The notes under the pieces: model-generated
Told to the model about the DNA's origin: nothing
The model's database searches: none
The model's input: only the letters and a program-made list of their open reading frames with translations
Position numbers and translations under genes: made by a program
Shown: positions 9,334-57,225 of the stretch, one piece after another
Layout: every line of letters starts with the position of its first letter
Position numbering within the stretch: the first letter of the stretch is position 1
Assembly: GCA_000004695.1 (NCBI GenBank)
Contig: CM000151.3
Coordinates: 2,496,001-2,560,000 of the forward strand
DNA: 64,000 nucleotides
Source: Dictyostelium discoideum
Lineage: Eukaryota
Reading direction: 5' to 3'

Positions 9334-10025
9334 AATTTGTTGTTTGGTTTTATATTTTTACTTAAAGTATAAATTTAAAATATATTATATATTAAATATT
9401 TAATTTAATTTTTATTATTAATATTTTCTTTTTTTTTTATATTTAATATGATATATTTATATATAAATTTATTTTTATTATTAATGTAAACTATATAATA
9501 TATATATTAACATTGGTTTAGAGGTAATCCATCTTCAATTGAGATTGATTATGGAAAAAGGTTAATTTACAAAATAAAATTGAACAATTTGATGATTTAA
9601 AAAGGTAATTTGTGTATCACGAATAAACTATTTGGGAGGGCTAAGCTAGGAAAGAAGTAATTTAAGGCAAAATGAATTTTATTGCTTGTAGTTATTATTT
9701 TTATTTTTTTTTTATTTAATATCGATATATTAAGATTTATTTGTTATGTTGGAGCGTCAGCACATTAAACTCAAAATAATAACTTTATAAAGAATATACA
9801 AAATAAACTAATTTACAAATGAAAAATGTAAATGAATAAATATAATAAATGAAAATGAATTTAATAATATAAATAATTATTGTAACAAAGAACTACTGCA
9901 TACCTTACAAATTGTAATGAATCTCGTATTCTAACTTTATGGAATACTTATATTATTTTGGATATATCAATAAACGATGTGTGACCCTTGAATAATTAAT
10001 AATAATTTATATAATCTATAGATAT

Positions 10026-10160
10026 CACATCTTAATGAAACGTGGTTATTCCAGGTTAATGAGTGGATAGCAATTGAACGAGCATCAATAGGGGTATCAA
10101 AGAAATGATTAACAACAGTGATACGATCAGTTACACCAGTAATAGCAGCACCATGACCTT
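10026..10160 (-). pseudogene. Discoidin I pseudogene fragment (~135 bp internal piece of the H-type lectin-domain coding region)
   Basis: ~90% identical at nucleotide level to 14292-14428 and 15777-15913 of the two intact discoidin I genes. Homology stops abruptly on both sides. Confidence 0.75.
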
Positions 10161-10169
10161 GTGAATATT

Positions 10170-10335
10170 GTTAATAATGACAGTTGACAATCCTCCCATG
10201 CCAATATTGTTAATAATGTCAGCTAAACTACCCCTTGCGAACAATGTTAATAATGTCAGCTGACCAACCTCCCTTGCGAACAATGTTAATAATGTCAGCT
10301 GACCAACCTCCCATGCAAATATCGCAAATTATGTC
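10170..10335 (+). repeat. ~40-bp tandem repeat array, ~4.5 copies (GAACAATGTTAATAATGTCAGCTGACCAACCTCCCWTGC), immediately after the discoidin pseudogene fragment
   Basis: Direct repeats visible in the sequence. Confidence 0.65.
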
Positions 10336-10872
10336 AGTTGACCCAACCACATTGATTACTATTCATTCAGTGTAAAGTGGATGCAAGGACATGCACAACT
10401 AATACTAACATACAGTAGTATCACACAATATAAAGTTTAACCAGATTCTTTAGATTAGCTACTCAAAAATGAGCACATATAATGTGTATGATTTTTATTA
10501 TTATTATTTATTTGATATTAATTAATTATTTACTTGATCTAGATGTAGATATTTTAGTAATAATAGGTGTTAATTCGGATTTTTTTTAAATTTGTATTTC
10601 TGCATGCAATATTATGTGTGAGTTTCAAAAAAAAAAAAAAAAATAAAAAAAAAAAAAAAATAAATAAAATTTTAAAAACCTTAATAATATAATGTTAATA
10701 TATAAAAAAATGAAATTATAGATCAAATAAATAAATGTTATTCGTAAATAGTAAAAACTCAAATAAATTCCTACCAATTTAATGTGGTTGACCTCATTCT
10801 TTTTTTAATTTTATTTAACCTTATTAGGTAAATTTCAGGGAAATCTAGATATTTAAATGGATAAAAAGAATG

Positions 10873-10951
10873 TGAGAGATGCGGGGTTCGAACCCGCGAC
10901 CCCGGAGGATAGAGCCTAAATCTATTGTCTTAACCACTCGACCAATCTCCC
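10873..10951 (-). tRNA. tRNA-Leu (anticodon UAG), long variable arm
   Basis: Reverse complement folds: acceptor GGGAGAT/ATCTCTC (one G-U), D-arm GTC-GAGTGGTTAA-GAC, anticodon arm ATAGA-TTTAGGC-TCTAT (TAG), 11-nt variable arm, T-arm GCGGG-TTCGAAC-CCCGC, discriminator A. T5 terminator just downstream on its own strand. Confidence 0.75.
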
Positions 10952-10997
10952 GTGCATATGTTTAAAATTTTTTCACCAAACTCCTGTGCATATGTTT

Positions 10998-11451
10998 AAA
11001 AAAAAAAAACCTGGAACCCAAGTTAATCAGAAAATTTCCAGATTTTTAACTTTTTAAAGAAAAATAAAAAAAATAGAAAGAAAATAAAATGAAAATCACA
11101 AACAACACCACAAATATTAAGCAACACAAATGCCTACAAAAAATAAGCGAAATTGTGGATAAAACTCAATTAAAAAAAAAACAATTCAAATACGTCATAA
11201 ACATCAATCACGAACCAGACGATAAAATAAAAAAAGATTTAGAAAAAAGTTTGGACAAAAAAGATGTTTTAATCAAAAGTAATAATACAATTCAAAATTC
11301 GAAACAAAAAAAAAAAAAAAAAAAAAAAGTAAACCAACCCCTCTTTTAGAGACCCTGTAAAAAAAAAAAAAAATAAAATAAAATGAGATCTAGCATCTCA
11401 AGGAGAAGCAAATAATAATTGCGTTATCCAATTCAAAAAAAAAAAAAAAAA
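10998..11451 (+). mobile_element. Severely 5'-truncated TRE5-A-like element (C-module region plus oligo(A) tails) inserted ~47 bp upstream of tRNA-Leu, 5' end facing the tRNA, flanked by a TSD CTGTGCATATGTTTAAAA
   Basis: TSD copies at 10982-10997 and 11456-11473, with a third copy of the same motif at 10952-10968. 11320-11450 is the reverse complement of 20168-20278. 11200-11290 matches the reverse complement of 1345-1430. ORF-track entry 11089-11349 lies inside this non-coding module. Confidence 0.65.
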
Positions 11452-12589
11452 AAACTGTGCATATGTTTAAAATTTATCATGTAATGTTTATAATTTATCA
11501 TGTGATGCTTATAATTTTTTTGCTTTTAAAATCAATTATTCAAAATATTTTCTATGACCTTGTATTATATTTGGTGTTAATGCTGAATTATCTAGTGATT
11601 GGTATAAATCAAGAATTTCATTCTTTAATAATAATGTGTACATATAATCACCAACTCCAAACTCTATAAACAGAAGAACAATACTACATGTACATGTTCA
11701 GGTATAAACACATTAGCCGTCTCAACTGATCCACCATGGCCTCAAATAACTTCGGTTTACATTTTTGATTCACTGTTTACTTTATTAAGTCATGAATTTC
11801 TTTATTTTTTACTTTTTTTTTCTAAAAAATATAGTCATTTATTAAGTTAATTTGAGCAGTATAGTGATAAATTGAAAAATAAACTCTGTAGTTTTTCTTA
11901 AGTGTCCAAAACATACATAAAATAGTTTTTATTGAAGTGGTTATTTAGGTGCTTCACTTGATGAAGGTAATCAAACTGCATAGAATGATTTGATGGTTAA
12001 ATGTTCAGATATGGCTTGTCGTGAAGCACTTAAAGAAGTTTCAAGAATGAAAATAATCATAATATTAAAAATTATAATATAAAATAAATTTCTCGTGTGT
12101 CGAGTATTTTCTTATGTTAATTTTATTTGCACAAAATTAATAAATAAAATAAAAGTAGTGTATATGAAAATAAGAAAAAAAAAAGTTTTAGAGCAAAAAA
12201 AGAAAAAGAAAAAAACAAATAATTCCAAAATTAGAGTACTTTTTAAAAATTATTTAATTATTTATTTATTTATTTATTTATTAATTAATTTATTTTTTAA
12301 TTTATTGATTTATTGATTTATTAATTTATTATGATTATTTACATTTTTGTAACTTTAATAGCTTAACGTCATGTCATTTCTAAATATTTAATCTTTTCTA
12401 ATTCTTTGCAGCTTGTTTACCTTTACCAGGTGAAGCTCCGAAATTACTAACAGAAGCATCGTAAAAAAAGCCACAGCTTTACCAATCCATTCTTTACTAA
12501 GTAATTGAGGGAATACACCAAAAAAAGAATGATTGACTTATACCACTATAAAGTAATGGTCACCAGTAATCGAATTGGTCTATCTTTAA

Positions 12590-12720
12590 ATATAAAACTT
12601 ACACTCTTTTTTTATTTGAACTATTGTCTGTATCTTTAGTTTTTCTTTTACCTGTTGTTGTTGTTGTTGTTGTATCATCTTGTTCCTATCTCCTGATGAT
12701 GGTTCATATTAATACTTAGT
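12590..12720 (-). pseudogene. Pseudo-copy of part of exon 1 of the BCNT-like gene (matches 57020-57130), embedded in a block of gene-fragment debris (11700-12900)
   Basis: TACACTCTTTTTTTATTTGAAC.ATT.TCTG.ATCTTTAGTTTTTCTTTTAC.TGTTGTTG...TCTCCTGATGATGGTTCATA shared between 12590-12720 and 57020-57130 with a few substitutions and indels. Confidence 0.55.
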
Positions 12721-13804
12721 TTGATTCTCTGCTATTTGTCCTTTACCATTAACTTTTGCTGGTTTACCCAATGTTGCAAATCCCAATATCGATAATGATC
12801 ACCTAAAAATAAAACTTCATTTGCTAAACCTGCTATATCAATTATTGCCGCTGTACCTAAATTACCAACAATGATACCCCTAAAAATATTAAAAACCAAA
12901 CTCCATTTGCTAAACCTGCTTTATAGATTAACTCAAAAAATTTATTTATTTTTTTATTTGTTTATTTATTTATTTATTTTTTTATTAACCAAAAAAAAAA
13001 GTAAAAAAAAAAAAGAAAAAAAAAAAAAAAGAAAAAAATAAATAAAAAAATGAAATTAAAAATTAGTAAGGGATGTAAAAATTTCAGTGGTGAAAAGTAA
13101 TTTTATGAGGTGCTGGTGTATGTTCGTTGCCTTTTTTTTTATTTTTTTTTACTTTTATTTTTTTATTTCATATAAAAATTAGTTTTGAAAAAAAAAAAGA
13201 AAAAAATAAATTAAAAAAATAATTATTTTATTTCTGTGTGATTATTTTTTTTTTTTTCTTTGTAGAGGGTACAATTTCAAAAATAAATATATTGTTTTTC
13301 TGAGTCCATAAATTTCCTATTACACTAATATTTTTATTTTTTTTTTATCATTATTGTTTTATTTTTTTTATTTTAAGAGTGACCCATTATATTGATTCCT
13401 TTTGAAAACATTTTAATTTATTTATTTATTTGAATTTAAAAAAAAAATTTAAAATATATAGATATTTGGTTAAGAGAATTAAAAAAAAAAAAATTGAAAA
13501 AATTAAAAAAAGTGTTTGGGAATTAAAAAAAAAAATAAAATGGAAAATGAAAAAAAATGAAAAAACGAAAATTAATTTTAATTATTTATTGCTGTAAATA
13601 AAAAATTTATGGAAAAAATAAATATTATAATTCACCTTAAAAAAAAAAAAAAAAAAATTTATGACATTAGTTTTTATGGGTGTATCATGTTTTTTTTTTT
13701 TATTTTTTTTGAATACTGTTAGAATAATTATATAATCTGGTCTATTGATCAAAAAATAAAATAAAAAAAGATAATTATTTTTGATTAATATAAATATGTT
13801 TAAC

Positions 13805-13861
<57 letters not shown>

Positions 13862-13979
13862 AAAGCTTTTTGTTTTATAATAAAAAAAAATAAAATTAAA
13901 TTTTATTTGTTTTTATTTTTTTTTAAAATTGATTAATAATTAAATTACAATTTTAATAATTTTTTAAAAAATTATTTGT

Positions 13980-14741
13980 TTATTCTAAAGCGGTGGCAAT
14001 GTAATCAGCTCTTAATGAATAGACTTTGTTTTCATTCCAAGTGTAGAAAACACAATCAAAACCTTTGGTGGTAATGTTTCTTGGTTGAACACCAATACGA
14101 GTTTGATTGGTAGCATCAGTACAATCGATTTGATCAAAGTTGAGGGCAACCTTTGGGAGAGTAGCAAATTCAAATTGGAATTTAACTGGGACAACAACTT
14201 CACGTTTACCTGAACCGGTATTTAAGGCACAGTTATCGCCAGTGTAAATATCTGCACCAACTTGAGTGACTGAGCTTTGTACTGGTTGAGTGTAGAATTC
14301 ACATCTTAATGAAATGTGGTTATTCCAGGTTAATGGGTGGATAGCAATTGAACGAGCTCTAATTGGAGTATCAAAGAAATGATTAACAACAGTGTTACGA
14401 TCAGTTACACCAGTAATAGCAGCACCATTACGATATTCAGACCAGGTAACATTATCTAATGAATAACGGATTTTGTATGATGTAACCCATTGATCATGAT
14501 CACCACGACCTTGGAGAGCAACACACATAAAAGTACGTGGAACTTCACAACCAGCAACAATGTATTGGTTAGTATCTACGATTGATGAACACCAAGCTTC
14601 TGAACCATCAATAGTATTGGTACCTTTGTTTTTATAGTTTAAAGCAGCATTAAATTGAGTGTGGACACCATTGTAATTGGTTGAGGTTCTTAAATGACAT
14701 TGAGCATTTCCGAGAAGTGTAACTAAACCTTGGGTAGACAT
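13980..14741 (-). CDS. Discoidin I (253 aa; N-terminal discoidin/F5-8 type C domain plus C-terminal H-type lectin domain), intact, intronless
   Basis: Protein [29 protein letters not shown]...[10 protein letters not shown] recognised as discoidin I from memory. Complete ATG..TAA. Confidence 0.9.
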
Positions 14742-15081
14742 TTTAATTGTGTGTTGAATTTAAAAAAAGATAATTTGTATAAATGAAATTTTAATTTTTC
14801 AGTTTAATGATTTTAAAATGAAAATCATATTTTCTTTTTATAGTTTTTTTTTTTTTTTTTTTCCAATTAAAATTAAAGATTTAATTTATTTTTTTTTTAA
14901 TTTTTTAATTTTGTAAAATGACCAACTATTTTTATTGAAAAAATTAATGGGTATAAATTTTTTAAAATTTAATAAAAATCACCCCACTTTTCAGATTTTT
15001 CCTAGCTGTCGCAATTGGTGTGAAAAAAAAAATAAAATTAAAATGATTGTAAATTTTTTTTGTAATGGTTTGATTATTAAA

Positions 15082-15119
<38 letters not shown>

Positions 15120-15464
15120 TAAATTTGTAAATTTGGAATTTTTATGATTGAAAATAATTATATCTTTTTTTTTTTTATGATTTTTTTTTTTTTATTGATT
15201 TTTTTTATTTTTTTTTTATTGTTTTTTCAATGAAAAAAAAAGTTTTTATTCCTTAAAGATTGACGATAATTAATTTAGATTGGATATTATAAAAATACAG
15301 TTTTTTTTTTTTTTTTTTTATCATTTTTTATTTCAAATTTAATAATAATAGTTTAGAAATGGAAAAAATATAATAAACAAAATCTTGAATTTGGATTTTT
15401 TTTTTTTTTTTTTATTAAATTTGATTAAAAATTAAATTACAATTTTAATAATAAGATTAAAAAT

Positions 15465-16226
15465 TTATTCTAAAGCAGTAGCAATGTAATCAGCTCTTAA
15501 TGAATAGACTTTGTTAGCATTCCAAGTGTAGAAAACACAATCGAAACCTTTGGTGGTAATGTTTCTTGGTTGAACACCAATACGAGTTTGATTGGTAGCA
15601 TCAGTACAATCGATTTGATCAAAGTTGAGGGCAACCTTTGGGAGAGTAGCAAATTCAAATTGGAATTTAACTGGGACAACAACTTCACGTTTACCTGAAC
15701 CGGTATTTAAGGCACAGTTATCGCCAGTGTAAATATCTGCACCAACTTGAGTGACTGAGCTTTGTACTGGTTGAGTGTAGAATTCACATCTTAATGAAAT
15801 GTGGTTATTCCAGGTTAATGGGTGGATAGCAATTGAACGAGCTCTAATTGGAGTATCAAAGAAATGATTAACAACAGTGTTACGATCAGTTACACCAGTA
15901 ATAGCAGCACCATTACGATATTCAGACCAGGTAACATTATCTAATGAATAACGGATTTTGTATGATGTAACCCATTGATCATGATCACCACGACCTTGGA
16001 GAGCAACACACATAAAAGTACGTGGAACTTCACAACCAGCAACAATGTATTGGTTGGTATCTACGATTGATGAACACCAAGCTTCTGAACCATCAATAGT
16101 ATTGGTACCTTTGTTTTTATAGTTTAAAACAGCATTAAATTGAGTGTGGACATCATTGTAATTGGTTGAGGTTCTTAAATGACATTGAGCATTTGAGATA
16201 AGTTGAACTAAACCTTGGGTAGACAT
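15465..16226 (-). CDS. Discoidin I, second tandem copy (253 aa, 7 amino-acid differences from the first copy), intact
   Basis: Near-identical ORF 1485 bp upstream of the first. The 5' and 3' flanks are also conserved, so the duplication unit is ~1.5 kb. Confidence 0.9.
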
Positions 16227-17136: not shown

Positions 17137-17190
17137 TCGCTAGTTCGATTCTGAATAAATGAAATAGGAATCGAACTAGCGACATATTCT
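17137..17190. promoter_or_regulatory. Perfect 15-bp inverted repeat (TCGCTAGTTCGATTC / GAATCGAACTAGCGA, 16-bp spacer). Each arm contains an external B-box-like AGTTCGATTC, located 20-70 bp downstream of tRNAi-Met copy A
   Basis: Only the tRNA-proximal arm is shared with copy B (20709-20725). The distal arm is an extra inverted copy. Confidence 0.5.
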
Positions 17191-17580
17191 ATATAATTTT
17201 AAAATTTAGCTTCTCTAGGTTTCGATCCTAGGACCTCGAGGTTATGGGCCTCGCACTCTACCCCTGAGTTAAGAAGCTGTCGATTCAAGCTAACGAATCT
17301 TATGATTTTGTTGTAATAAAGTTACTCTATAAAATTAATACATATTAAATATGCATATTACATTACTAATTTTAGTTGACACACATTTAAATAATATAAT
17401 AATAATAATAATAATAATACTGTCAACTCATTATAAATAATATAAATACTAAAGAATAATTTTATAAACAATATTGAATATTAAATATAAACTAATATTA
17501 AATAAAGATAACAAAGTATTATTCAATTATATAATTATTAATTATATATATTTATAAAGCTAACAAGCTTTATTACATTT
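17163..17580 (-). repeat. Arm A of an inverted segmental duplication (~420 bp): tRNAi-Met gene plus 302 bp upstream flank and ~45 bp downstream flank
   Basis: Reverse complement of 20315-20730 with only a few mismatches. Confidence 0.85.
17207..17278 (-). tRNA. Initiator tRNA-Met (anticodon CAU), copy A
   Basis: Identical to copy B, see 20614-20685. Confidence 0.85.
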
Positions 17581-20280: not shown

Positions 20281-20613
20281 GAACACTTCAGACAACATTT
20301 AGTTATTTGATATGAAATGTAATAAAGCTTGTTAGCTTTATAAATATATAATTAATAATTATATAATTGAATAATACTTTGTTATCTTTATTTAATATTA
20401 GTTTATATTTATAATATTCAATATTGTTTATAAAATTATTCTTTAGTATTTATATTATTTATAATGAGTTGACAGTATTATTATTATTATTATTATATTA
20501 TTTAAATGTGTGTCAACTATAATTAGTAATGTAATATGCATATTTAATATCTATTAATTTTATAGAGTAACTTTATTACAGAAAAATCATAAGATTCGTT
20601 AGCTTGAATCGAC

Positions 20614-20685
20614 AGCTTCTTAACTCAGGGGTAGAGTGCGAGGCCCATAACCTCGAGGTCCTAGGATCGAAACCTAGAGAAGCTA
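20614..20685 (+). tRNA. Initiator tRNA-Met (anticodon CAU), copy B
   Basis: AGCTTCTTAACTCAGGGGTAGAGTGCGAGGCCCATAACCTCGAGGTCCTAGGATCGAAACCTAGAGAAGCTA. Perfect 7-bp acceptor stem. Anticodon loop CCCATAA has C33. T-loop GATCGAAAC has A54 and A60. These are eukaryotic initiator-specific features. Similar to human tRNAi-Met (GGCCCATAACC, AGGTC, GGATCGAAACC blocks). Confidence 0.85.
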
Positions 20686-20714
20686 AATTTTAAAATTATA
20701 CAGAATATGTCGCT

Positions 20715-20725
20715 AGTTCGATTCC
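20715..20725 (+). promoter_or_regulatory. External B-box (AGTTCGATTCC) 30-40 bp downstream of tRNAi-Met copy B
   Basis: Matches the B-box consensus GGTTCGANTCC at the position established for Dictyostelium ex-B boxes. Confidence 0.55.
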
Positions 20726-21023
20726 TATTTTAAAGAATTAAATTCCATATTGATTTAATTTTAAAAAAATTAAAAGCCTACAGTTGATCAAACGGATACT
20801 AGATACAGAAAAACATATCCATCAATCTAACATCAACTACATTCAATCTATCTACTCTACACACTAATTCCTTCAATCCTTGGATTGGGAATAAGAATAG
20901 ATCTGAATAAACGATAAAGAAAAAAAAAAATAAAAATAAAAATCAAAAATATTTTTATATAAACACATAATTAAAAAAAAAAAATAATAAAAATAATCTA
21001 AAAAAAAAAAAAAAAAAAAAAAA

Positions 21024-21835: not shown

Positions 21836-21905
21836 AAAACCTATCAATAAAATTACTACAAGCAATGGTACCAAGTTTCCAATTGCCAGTAGTATTAGAA
21901 AATAA
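21024..21905 (+). CDS. TRE3 ORF1 (293 aa, Thr-rich C-terminus)
   Basis: First ORF of the element. Confidence 0.7.
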
Positions 21906-24640
21906 TGGAACAATTAAAATTATTACTATGGAACTGCAGAGGTAATCAATCAACCAACGCTAAGAATAAAACAGAAGAAACGATAAAAAGAATTGGCACT
22001 CAATTAACACTCCTAACTGAAACTAATTTCAATGGATTCAACCACCACAAAACAATGTTCAACTTTGAAAGAATAGATCATGGTTCAGGTAAAGGAACTG
22101 GCATAGCAATAGAAAATAGAGATACAAGAAAAGGCCACATATCAATAAACTTCAAAGACGATGATGGTAGAATACTATCAATTAAATACAATTCCTTTAA
22201 TTCTATCAACATATTATTGATCAATGCTCCAGCGACTATATCTGAAAGAAACACCTTCATAATCAACTCAAAATCACTGTTTAAAAAATATAATTCAATC
22301 AACCATCAAATAATAGCAGGCGACTTCAATAACAACCACGATTGCAACAGCTTCTTCGGTACTGAATTACGTAAAATAATAGACCAAGACATGCTACTAG
22401 ATACTGGTATTGAAGAAAACACTCCAACATTTCCAAGATCAATGAAGAGACTAGATAGAATCTACTGTCATCCAACACTACTAAACCAAAATTCAAAACT
22501 GGTAGTCCACAACACAGTATTCAACAAATCAGATCACTTTCCCATCACAATCACAATACAAACCAACAGAGAAACAACAACAACAACAACAACAACCAAA
22601 CTAGAAAGACTCCCTTGGACATTATGTAAAGAAATTCTCAACAACAAACATATACATGATGGGTTATCAGAATTAATCAGTAAGAACAAAGATAAGATCA
22701 AATCAGTGGAGGAATGGACGAAATTTAAAAATAATGTCATCAGAGATTATTTAAAAAAAGAACAAAACAAAATAAAGAAAGAAAAGAACAAAAGAAAATA
22801 CGTAATCCACAAATTACTTGGAAATAGTGATATCATTCCAAAGATGAGAAAAGAACTCAATGAAGAAATAAGTAGAATATTAGAAGAAGAAAGAAAGGTA
22901 AAAGCATGGGATATAAAATTAAAACTCCACCTGCATCAAGAAACACCAAGCAAATACCTCACAAGTATCCTTAAATCCAGAGCCAAAGATAAATCAATAT
23001 TCCAAATAAAAGATAAAGATAATAAGACCATATCAGATAAAGAGAACATAGCAAAAAGATTTGTTGAATTCTATCAAGATCAATATGAAGAGAAAGAAGA
23101 TAACGAAGAAACCCACAAGAAGTTATTAGAAAAATGGGAAGTAGACGTTGATTTAATCAAGAAACTCGAGATAGACAGACCGATAAGAATACATGAAGTG
23201 ACCAAAGCAATCAAAACTTCAAGTATCCACAAATCTCCAGGTTTAGACGGTATCAATGCACTATTCTACAAGTACCACATCAACTCAATAGCAAGAATAT
23301 TGACTATAGCTTTCAACGACCTCCTCACAAATAAGAAAGAAATCCCCACAAAATTCAAAGAAGGAGTAATAACAACAATATTCAAAAAAGGAGATGAACT
23401 AAACATTTCAAATAGAAGACCAATCACCCTTCTCAATACAGATTACAAAATTTTAAGCAAAATTCTCAACAGTAGATTATTAGATATCACCAGTAAAATT
23501 ATCAACAAATTTCAAAACGGCTTTGTTCCAAACAGGTTCATCCAAGACAATATTCAGATCATGAAGGAAGTAATAGAAATAAGTAACAAAAGAAAGAACA
23601 ATACACTCATTACCTTTTACGATTTTAACAAAGCATTCGATTCAATCAGCCACAAGAGTATCACAAGAACATTAGAGCATATTGGTATCCCCCCAAAATT
23701 CACAGCGATCCTACTAAACCTACTCAAAGATACTAAAAACAAAATAAAGATCAACGACTTTTTAGTCAATGGAATAACAATCAGAACAGGAACAAAACAA
23801 GGAGACCCAATATCACCAACAATCTTTGCTCTAGTTTTAGAACCACTTCTAATAGATATCATCAATGATAATACAATCAAAGGCTTCACTCTACCAAATT
23901 CCAAATCATTAAAACTCACTGCATTTGCTGACGACATAGCAACCTTTACAAACTCCACAGAAGAACTAATGAAAATTAATACTAAAATCCAAAAGTACTG
24001 CTCAGCAACGTCATCATCGTTAAACAAAGAGAAAACAGTAATGATAGCAATAGGAGATAAACCACACGATCTACCATTCCAAGAGAGTACAGTCCCAGAA
24101 AGATATCTTGGCCTCAATTTCACCAAAACAGGTTTAAATTCAAAATACAACACTTTAATCCAAGAAATGAAAAACAATCTAATCAAATGGAAATCACAAG
24201 CAATAACGATGAAGGCAAAGATGACAATTCTCAAAACATACGTTCTATCCAAATTAACATACCATCAATACATGGATAATCTAAATGAAGAACAAATTGA
24301 GGAAATCAATAACATGACCAGATGGTTCTTATTCTCCTCAGTTAAGAATACATATACAGAAGAGAGAAAATACAAAACTATGATGAAAATAGACAGAGCA
24401 TATGCAGATTGGAAAGAAGGAGGCATAAAATTATGGGATATAGAACTAAGACATATAGCATTCAAAATCTGGTACATGAACAGGCTACTCCATAACAACT
24501 ACAACAACAACAACAATACCTTACAAGAATGGTACATGGAGCAATTAAGTAGAAAAAAGCCCACACTTCAACCCTCAACGATATGTGCAGACACTGGGGT
24601 GTATTCAGAGTCAAATTTTACCAAAACCATCCAAAGATAA
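21905..24640 (+). CDS. TRE3 ORF2: apurinic/apyrimidinic-type endonuclease plus reverse transcriptase (911 aa to the first stop)
   Basis: EEP/APE-like N-terminus, RT motifs 1-7 including FADD at the YXDD position. Confidence 0.8.
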   Translation: MEQLKLLLWNCRGNQSTNAKNKTEETIKRIGTQLTLLTETNFNGFNHHKTMFNFERIDHGSGKGTGIAIENRDTRKGHISINFKDDDGRILSIKYNSFNSINILLINAPATISERNTFIINSKSLFKKYNSINHQIIAGDFNNNHDCNSFFGTELRKIIDQDMLLDTGIEENTPTFPRSMKRLDRIYCHPTLLNQNSKLVVHNTVFNKSDHFPITITIQTNRETTTTTTTTKLERLPWTLCKEILNNKHIHDGLSELISKNKDKIKSVEEWTKFKNNVIRDYLKKEQNKIKKEKNKRKYVIHKLLGNSDIIPKMRKELNEEISRILEEERKVKAWDIKLKLHLHQETPSKYLTSILKSRAKDKSIFQIKDKDNKTISDKENIAKRFVEFYQDQYEEKEDNEETHKKLLEKWEVDVDLIKKLEIDRPIRIHEVTKAIKTSSIHKSPGLDGINALFYKYHINSIARILTIAFNDLLTNKKEIPTKFKEGVITTIFKKGDELNISNRRPITLLNTDYKILSKILNSRLLDITSKIINKFQNGFVPNRFIQDNIQIMKEVIEISNKRKNNTLITFYDFNKAFDSISHKSITRTLEHIGIPPKFTAILLNLLKDTKNKIKINDFLVNGITIRTGTKQGDPISPTIFALVLEPLLIDIINDNTIKGFTLPNSKSLKLTAFADDIATFTNSTEELMKINTKIQKYCSATSSSLNKEKTVMIAIGDKPHDLPFQESTVPERYLGLNFTKTGLNSKYNTLIQEMKNNLIKWKSQAITMKAKMTILKTYVLSKLTYHQYMDNLNEEQIEEINNMTRWFLFSSVKNTYTEERKYKTMMKIDRAYADWKEGGIKLWDIELRHIAFKIWYMNRLLHNNYNNNNNTLQEWYMEQLSRKKPTLQPSTICADTGVYSESNFTKTIQR

Positions 24641-56048: not shown

Positions 56049-56050
<2 letters not shown>

Positions 56051-56241
56051 ATAAAGTTCCATTATTTACTTTATCTAAAAAGTTCTTTCTTTCTAAATAA
56101 CCATCTTTTTTTTGTTGTTCTATTATATGTTTTTCATTTTCATCTTGATCTTTAAATTTATCCCAATCTAATTTCGATTTTTCCAATGTATTAATTTTCT
56201 TTGGTTTTGATAAATTTGATAATAAATTATTTAATCCTCCT
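56049..56241 (-). CDS. BCNT-like protein, exon 3 of 3: BCNT-C domain (GGLNNLLSNLSKPKKINTLEKSKLDWDKFKDQDENEKHIIEQQKKDGYLERKNFLDKVNNGTL*). Total 320 aa
   Basis: Acceptor TTAATAG|AGG. KSKLDW...F......GYLER..FL is the conserved BCNT-C signature. Confidence 0.55.
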
Positions 56242-56947: not shown

Positions 56948-57016
56948 CTATTATATTATATTATGTTATAAAATTAATATAAATTTAATTTTATTTAATA
57001 AAATATAAAAACTTAC

Positions 57017-57225
57017 ACTCTTTTTTTATTTGAACCATTATCTGAATCTTTAGTTTTTCTTTTACGTGTTGTTGTGTCATCTTGTTCTTCATCTTCGCTA
57101 TCTCCTGATGATGGTTCATAATCTTCATCCTCACTGTCTTCAATATCCTCTTCAACAAATTCTGGTATTACCACAGTTCTACTTCTGGTTTGAACTACCA
57201 ATTTATTCTTTTCACTTTTTGACAT
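57017..57225 (-). CDS. BCNT/CFDP1/Swc5-like protein, exon 1 of 3 (MSKSEKNKLVVQTRSR...acidic Ser/Asp/Glu stretch...KKR)
   Basis: First ATG at 57225 (track start 57252 is a TTG). Donor GTAAGT at 57016-57011. Confidence 0.55.

Follow-up and report, generated by a model that had tools for sequence, protein, structure and literature searches.

How does DNA of partly coding appearance come to lie, without a gene, in the flank of a transfer RNA (tRNA) gene? The question is raised by a stretch of ~1.4 kb beside a tRNA-Leu gene in the discoidin I region of Dictyostelium discoideum chromosome 2, which we analysed within a window of 64,000 nucleotides (nt; positions 2,496,001 to 2,560,000 of contig CM000151.3, assembly GCA_000004695.1). 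Coordinates below are positions in this window. A first-pass annotation had described 11650-12950 as a mosaic of captured gene fragments and had tentatively linked it to the retroelement activity next door. Judging from its sequence, the stretch is probably a non-functional patchwork of gene-fragment copies, made at the DNA level and accumulated stepwise in a gene-poor tRNA flank. The patch is ordinary genome decay, and is neither a gene nor the cargo of the neighbouring retroelement. While the mosaic itself was borne out, with at least three origins within 1.1 kb (a BCNT gene, a PSMA3-like proteasome gene represented twice in inverted orientation, and the module of a dispersed family), its capture by the retroelement was not.

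Fragments of unrelated genes in the patch

The flagged segments have a GC content of 0.24-0.33, against 0.12-0.15 in the intergenic DNA around them. The longest open reading frame (ORF) in 11650-12950 is 55 amino acids (aa), in agreement with the earlier description of the adjoining segments as coding-like but devoid of a continuous ORF. The whole of 9400-13999 was found as the same sequence in an independent D. discoideum assembly, GCA_054883475.1, the sole difference being the length of a poly-A run (17 A at 13808-13824). The patch is therefore not an assembly artefact. Its components, together with the donor of one of them, are as follows.

11650-11935, no strand assigned: segment without match, GC up to 0.30, stops in every frame
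11940-12090, plus strand: inverted-repeat arm on the left, itself a PSMA3-like fragment covering residues ~160-201, reading GYLGASLDEGNQTA*NDLMVKCSDMACREALKEVSRMKIIII
12091-12298, no strand assigned: AT-rich spacer of 208 nt between the arms, GC ~0.12, with a TTAT-type microsatellite
12299-12447, minus strand: inverted-repeat arm on the right, matching the left one at 74% identity in 154 columns
12322-12553, minus strand: PSMA3-like (proteasome alpha7) pseudogene fragment, secure in 12454-12322 (residues ~158-201)
12580-12715, minus strand: segment of 136 nt that starts with GT and ends with AG, composed of GTATTAA, the 121-nt BCNT copy and AAAGATAG
12588-12708, minus strand: BCNT pseudo-copy, comprising the 104 nt that end exon 1 and the start of intron 1
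12716-12935, minus strand: member of a dispersed family, with the motif GNLG.AA.ID.AGLANEVLF followed by 'SLSILGFATLGKPAKVNGKGQIAENQTK'
12936-13050, minus strand: AT-rich 5' flank, homologous along with the module to the flank of another family copy (L002, see below)
57001-57120, minus strand: source of the BCNT pseudo-copy within the intact gene, 44.4 kb distant and in the same orientation

The clearest of these fragments is the BCNT piece. In a blastn search of 11400-13100 against the window, 12588-12708 aligned with 57001-57120 in the same orientation at 87.8% identity over 123 columns (E 2e-35), with 10 mismatches and 5 gap positions. Most of the differences lie in a slippage-prone GAA/CAA low-complexity core. 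The initial 23 nt are identical, the final ~64 columns contain 3 mismatches and 1 gap, and identity outside the core is ~95%. The partner gene is BCNT, as its C-terminal exon (56049-56186) matches Pfam PF07572 (E 9.8e-11). By our reading its exon 1 is 57225-57017, with the donor GT at 57016. On the minus strand the copy begins at TATGAACC and continues through 104 nt of exon 1, the splice donor GTAAGT and 10 further intron bases, and its homology ends sharply on both sides. It thus contains no more of exon 1 than its 3' half, plus the start of the intron, and is the diverged exon 1 copy, without the rest of the gene, that had been noted before. The copy is frameshifted, YEPSSGD being out of frame with EQDDTTT..KRKTKD..NKKR. 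The first-pass annotation had also suggested a search for target-site duplications (TSDs) or poly(A) around the fragments. Neither end of 12588-12708 has an A-tract (the flanks are GTATTAA and AAAGATAG), and we found no flanking direct repeats around this copy and none above the shuffle level around the mosaic. The retained intron start and the absence of poly(A) indicate that the piece is not a processed retrocopy. Because exon 1 and intron 1 are joined in it, its template was DNA or at most unspliced RNA, rather than mRNA.

Two further fragments resemble PSMA3, the proteasome alpha7 subunit. Pfam, PDB and Rfam searches with single fragments gave no matches until the frame at 11936-12060(+) matched the proteasome. 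The right-hand fragment, 12478-12322(-), matched PSMA3 in PDB with an E of 5.4e-7. Among the matches listed, 21 of 27, and all of those below E 0.3, were PSMA3/alpha7. This fragment contains one frameshift and three stops, and includes the GVFPQLLSKEWIGKAVAFF and GASPGKGKQAAK frames singled out in the first-pass annotation. After a shift of frame, '...GASPGKGKQAAK' goes on as ELEKIKYLEMT*R*AIKVTKM*IIII. A HMMER profile search stretched the match back to 'LYSG' (12553), so that it covers PSMA3 residues 125-201. The left-hand frame, 11936-12060(+), gave a weak PDB match to PSMA3 residues 158-200 (E 0.036), and the left arm matched PSMA3 with an E of 0.013 in a comparison with a provisional PSMA3 sequence. 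Provisional sequences were used in two comparisons, of which the PDB searches are the independent test. The two arms, ~150 nt each, form a palindrome whose local alignment score was 136, against 46±6.6 (maximum 75) in 300 block shuffles, and extending it past the arms gave no significant alignment. The window holds no intact proteasome gene. The BCNT piece (E 2e-35, with a frameshift), the PSMA3-like fragment (E 5.4e-7) and a discoidin I fragment described below (93%) all have the character of duplicated gene-fragment pseudogenes.

We also considered whether the whole of 12935-12322 might be a single PSMA3 pseudogene. The spacing of AGLA, LLY and FGAS is colinear with PSMA3. The PSMA3-like part did not reach Pfam PF00227 and had no significant match upstream of residue ~125, where phmmer, Pfam and shuffled Smith-Waterman alignments likewise gave no support, and this candidate was rejected. 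As a separate observation, 11944-11957 and 12021-12034 form a 14-bp perfect stem around 63 nt, with UGAUGA after the 5' arm and an RNA fold z of -2.8. A C/D-box small nucleolar RNA was rejected as an identity for this hairpin, which has no D box and no Rfam match and lies inside the PSMA3-derived arm. The hairpin is probably fortuitous. With the Rfam covariance models, tRNAs alone exceeded the gathering threshold in the window, and 11000-13600 gave nothing below E = 3.

The dispersed module and the annotated gene models

An exhaustive HMMER search with a frame-corrected translation of 12930-12712 retrieved only two relevant proteins. One, of 48 aa, is the AX4 model at the flagged locus itself (DDB_G0273269 / DDB_G0273889), and the other, of 95 aa, is DDB_G0290045 on chromosome 5. 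A tblastn search placed residues 4-27 of the latter at 12875-12804, residues 33-62 at 12798-12715 and residues 60-91 at 12587-12480, in three frames. As the chromosome 5 protein matches both sides of the BCNT piece, those flanks constitute one unit that exists elsewhere. The 136-nt segment 12715-12580 parts '...ENQTK' from 'PIRL...', and the protein is continuous across it. The comparison was made at the protein level, and the segment, with its GT and AG ends, may be either absent from chromosome 5 or spliced out by an ab initio model there.

A profile search added two more D. discoideum hypothetical proteins, from other assemblies. The loci concerned, L002 (GCA_054859355.1) and L003 (GCA_054859385.1), share ~100-280 nt with 12774-13050, the AT-rich 5' flank included, and are unrelated beyond it. 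The alignment of 12774-13050 with L002 10711-10427 showed 71% identity over 298 columns, and a second match in the L002/L003 comparison reached 82.5% over 103 columns. Since the AT-rich flank is common to family copies in two other assemblies, the family has spread at the DNA level. The module is kept in four to five copies, with one indel that keeps the frame, and synonymous changes make up about half of its few substitutions. Its motif gave no matches in metagenome and prokaryote-genome scans, and the module had no Pfam, PDB or other homologue outside the D. discoideum hypothetical models. Within our copy there is a direct repeat of 41 nt (12804-12844 and 12890-12930, 85% identical, 86 nt apart), the result of a partial tandem duplication. 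The motif has a second copy at 12871-12931, which forms the upstream unit of this 86-nt tandem duplication. The repeated motifs reported earlier at 12815-12845 and 12895-12925 are this repeat, with coordinates that agree to within ~10 nt. Both L002 and L003 are dense nests of repeats, direct and inverted, that are several kb long and 70-90% identical. The proteins predicted there are Ser/Thr-rich, low-complexity models of 133-156 aa, and L003 stands at a contig start, adjoining TgrO1-like Ig genes.

We then examined the structure of the AX4 model. The core exon of DDB_G0273269 is exactly 12879-12747, and its 'ME' needs an intron of 22 nt (12901-12880). Within 3.7 kb downstream, the sole AG-preceded GGN-Leu-stop exon is 11354-11346, which lies inside the TRE5 retroelement remnant described below. 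This is apparently the last exon of the model, implying an intron of 1.39 kb. The annotation of GCA_054883475.1 calls no gene at the locus. The model lacks what a protein-coding gene would show, namely an open frame, plausible introns and a frame conserved among paralogues, and it is not credible as a gene. The debris interpretation of the first-pass annotation had been staked against the fragments assembling into a spliced, conserved gene. They do not, given the 22-nt intron that is needed and frames that differ from those of the chromosome 5 paralogue. DDB_G0273269/DDB_G0273889 is best read as a mis-annotated pseudogene mosaic, and DDB_G0290045 is probably another. We found no literature on the gene identifiers of the locus, nor on Tdd-2/Tdd-3 together with discoidin.

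The neighbouring retroelement and the wider fragment field

The patch lies near a short retroelement and a tRNA gene, beyond which a further gene fragment was found.

10019-10154, minus strand: piece from inside a discoidin I coding sequence, with ~93% identity to 14293-14428 and 15778-15913
10872-10951, minus strand: tRNA-Leu(UAG) gene, target of the TRE5 insertion, in the middle of the fragment field
11002-11454, plus strand: short remnant of a TRE5-type non-LTR (long terminal repeat) retroelement, with an A20 tail and an 18-nt TSD

TRE5-A has been described to insert ~50 bp upstream of tRNA genes with its 5' end towards the tRNA, and to carry a C-module of 134-137 bp at its 3' end (PMC3159450). 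The remnant starts 50 bp upstream of the tRNA-Leu gene's 5' end (10951, with the insertion point at 11001/11002), its own 5' end turned to the tRNA and its poly(A) distal, which is the position described for TRE5-A (PMC3159450). A 3' module of 135 nt (11315-11449) recurs at two other tRNA-upstream sites of the window, with identities of 92.6% and 78%. The label TRE5-type comes from this geometry and from the copies in the window, rather than from a reference TRE5-A sequence. TRE elements are clustered at all four tRNA genes of the window. An exact 18-nt TSD (10984-11001 = 11455-11472) stands flush against the element. One copy directly follows the A20 at 11435-11454, and the fragments begin ~200 bp further on. 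As the TSD hugs the remnant, everything from 11473 onward is older or independent, and is not its 3' transduction.

Several further features of the remnant and its borders were observed. Its first ~290 nt (11010-11300) had no match in the window, and an ORF with ATG start, 11089-11349, runs into an internal A27. The remnant may be a 5'-truncated 'BC' element, as ~290 nt fits the published B-module of 290 bp. The 19-mer GTGCATATGTTTAAAATTT occurs three times, at 10952-10970, 10984-11001 and 11455-11475, the last two being the TSD. The first copy abuts the tRNA-Leu gene at its 5' end, so a direct repeat was already present at the pre-insertion site. It may be what an older insertion, since lost, left behind. 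Directly past the TSD, 11463-11517 is a tandem repeat of 21 nt (2.6 copies, 91%).

The discoidin I fragment at 10019-10154 indicates that the fragment field continues on the other side of the tRNA-Leu gene. It adds a fourth origin to the three in the patch. All of them are truncated and broken in frame, one with intron sequence and one with its genomic flank. Directly after the discoidin fragment, on the tRNA-downstream side, 4.7 copies of a 39-nt unit are arrayed in tandem (10163-10342). Two tandem discoidin I genes of 253 aa each are present at 13980-14741 and 15465-16226, and F5/8-type-C and H-lectin domains are annotated in both. Among the assemblies searched, both discoidins were recovered in one other, near-identical assembly only. 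Further along, two tRNA-Met(CAU) genes with their flanks (17162-17580 and 20315-20730) form an inverted pair of 97% identity. A full non-LTR element, whose ORF encoding apurinic/apyrimidinic endonuclease and reverse transcriptase is 21905-24640, lies downstream of the second one, a TRE3-type position.

Origin of the patch and comparison with known systems

The stepwise course that we propose for the patch is the following. The backbone, ~13050-12322 in the minus sense, would be one copy, now decayed, of a composite unit also found on chromosome 5 (DDB_G0290045). This unit would consist of the 5' flank with the 'GNLG..AGLANEVLF' module, followed by a truncated PSMA3-like fragment. Later events were probably a partial tandem duplication with a period of 86 nt, a fold-back (inverted) duplication of the PSMA3-like 3' end that gave the palindrome, and the gain of the 121-nt piece, copied from BCNT on the same strand at a distance of 44 kb. 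The TRE5-type element is a separate, self-contained insertion. Error-prone break repair or template switching (ectopic templated synthesis) is a plausible route, and the copies may have persisted as the flanks of tRNA genes offer neutral space in a compact genome. Identities are 74% for the palindrome arms, 82-85% for the family and tandem repeat, and ~93-95% for the discoidin fragment and for the BCNT copy outside its core. As these values span 74% to ~95%, the events were presumably separate in time. If this course is right, the tRNA-gene flanks of a compact genome gather DNA-level gene fragments besides TRE retroelements.

Several observations weigh against this account. Neither 12716-12935 nor 11650-11935 could be assigned a known gene as donor, the latter having no match in any search made. 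The PSMA3 pieces were matched to PDB chains rather than to D. discoideum psmA3, so that processed and genomic origins are not distinguished. The BCNT junctions have no visible microhomology. The 136-nt GT..AG segment may be spliced out by the chromosome 5 gene model, rather than be missing there. Finally, the AX4 annotation places a 48-aa protein at the locus.

This last point leads to the possibility of a real, lineage-specific spliced gene, either DDB_G0273269 or a longer chimera using the BCNT-derived splice donor. The exact core exon at 12879-12747 of the AX4 48-aa protein would fit such a gene, as would the conserved GNLG.AA.ID.AGLANEVLF module with its in-frame indel and half-synonymous substitutions, and the GT..AG borders around the BCNT piece. 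On the other hand, such a gene would need the 22-nt intron and a last exon whose candidate lies 1.39 kb away in the TRE5 remnant, the chromosome 5 paralogue reads the same nucleotides in different frames, and the only homologues are D. discoideum hypothetical models. Taking into account also the stops and frameshifts in the PSMA3-like part and the lack of a gene at the locus in the GCA_054883475.1 annotation, we consider a real gene very improbable. A related idea, that the family module and the PSMA3 piece, perhaps along with the BCNT piece in its GT..AG segment, form an exon-shuffling unit able to copy itself from chromosome to chromosome (a gene-fragment carrier, or a young chimeric gene with a BCNT-derived splice donor), is given a comparably slim chance. 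If true, it would mean an undescribed gene-fragment carrier in Dictyostelium, or a BCNT-derived piece in the course of being exonised or intronised. A new question arises only if the chromosome 5 comparison shows the unit to be mobile.

The remaining alternatives concern how the fragments arrived. That they were transduced, or reverse-transcribed and brought in by template switching, during the neighbouring TRE5 insertion is suggested by the remnant ~200 bp away and by the clusters of TRE elements near each of the window's four tRNA genes. Because the 18-nt TSD abuts the A20 tail, the DNA from 11473 onward is outside that insertion. Moreover, the BCNT piece has a splice donor and intron start and no poly(A), the family module brings its own AT-rich genomic flank, and the composite is present on chromosome 5 too. 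Retroelement capture is already largely refuted, and we regard it as extremely unlikely. Transport by a DNA transposon that carries gene fragments, of the Pack-type or Helitron-like kind, would account for a composite of unrelated fragments at two or more loci and for a family module that occurs with its flank at three further places, but is highly unlikely. Neither terminal inverted repeats nor flanking direct repeats rose above the shuffle level around 11450-13400, where the best scores of 24 and 26 compare with means of 27 and 28 in shuffles, the L002 and L003 copies share ~100-280 nt rather than the whole unit, and the spread of 74-95% among the parts argues for separate events. Yeast tRNA genes are known replication-fork barriers. 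A single replication-based event of serial template switching, of the MMBIR (microhomology-mediated break-induced replication) or FoSTeS (fork stalling and template switching) type, could have made the BCNT insertion at the same time as the tandem duplication and the palindrome. In its favour, duplications of both kinds, tandem and inverted, lie within 1 kb, together with a short templated insertion whose donor is in cis, 44 kb off and in the same orientation. However, their divergences are unlike (arms 74%, tandem repeat 85%, BCNT ~88-95%) and junction microhomology is not visible, so that one event is unlikely. Stepwise accumulation of DNA-level copies is therefore the explanation that we favour.

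Among known systems, plant Pack-MULE and Helitron mosaics are similar to the patch in that fragments of unrelated genes occur at more than one locus and are mis-annotated as hypothetical genes. They differ from it in their transposon hallmarks, as neither these nor terminal repeats or TSDs were found here. To our knowledge, no fragment carrier of the Pack-MULE/Helitron type is known in Dictyostelium. With processed pseudogenes and 3' transduction (LINE-type, long interspersed nuclear element; TRE5/TRE3), the patch shares its place next to a TRE5-type element 50 bp upstream of a tRNA gene, but it contains intron sequence, has no poly(A) and lies outside the TSD of the element. Non-processed gene-fragment pseudogenes and short templated insertions at repaired double-strand breaks resemble the patch in its short truncated copy (121 nt) with an exon/intron boundary and a donor in cis, in its frameshifts and stops and in its lack of promoter logic. 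The difference from both is that the patch packs several unrelated fragments, which are partly re-duplicated as palindrome and tandem repeat. Lastly, instability around the discoidin I genes, with large rearrangements and mobile elements, is said to have been described by Poole and Firtel in Mol Cell Biol in 1984. That work is not known to have covered the BCNT/PSMA3 fragment patch. The neighbourhood is the same, and in it the two tandem discoidin I genes (13980-16226) occur with Tdd/TRE elements, with inverted duplications and with a discoidin fragment. The palindrome, the tandem duplication and the 121-nt templated insertion in cis add small-scale detail to a region long reported to be unstable.

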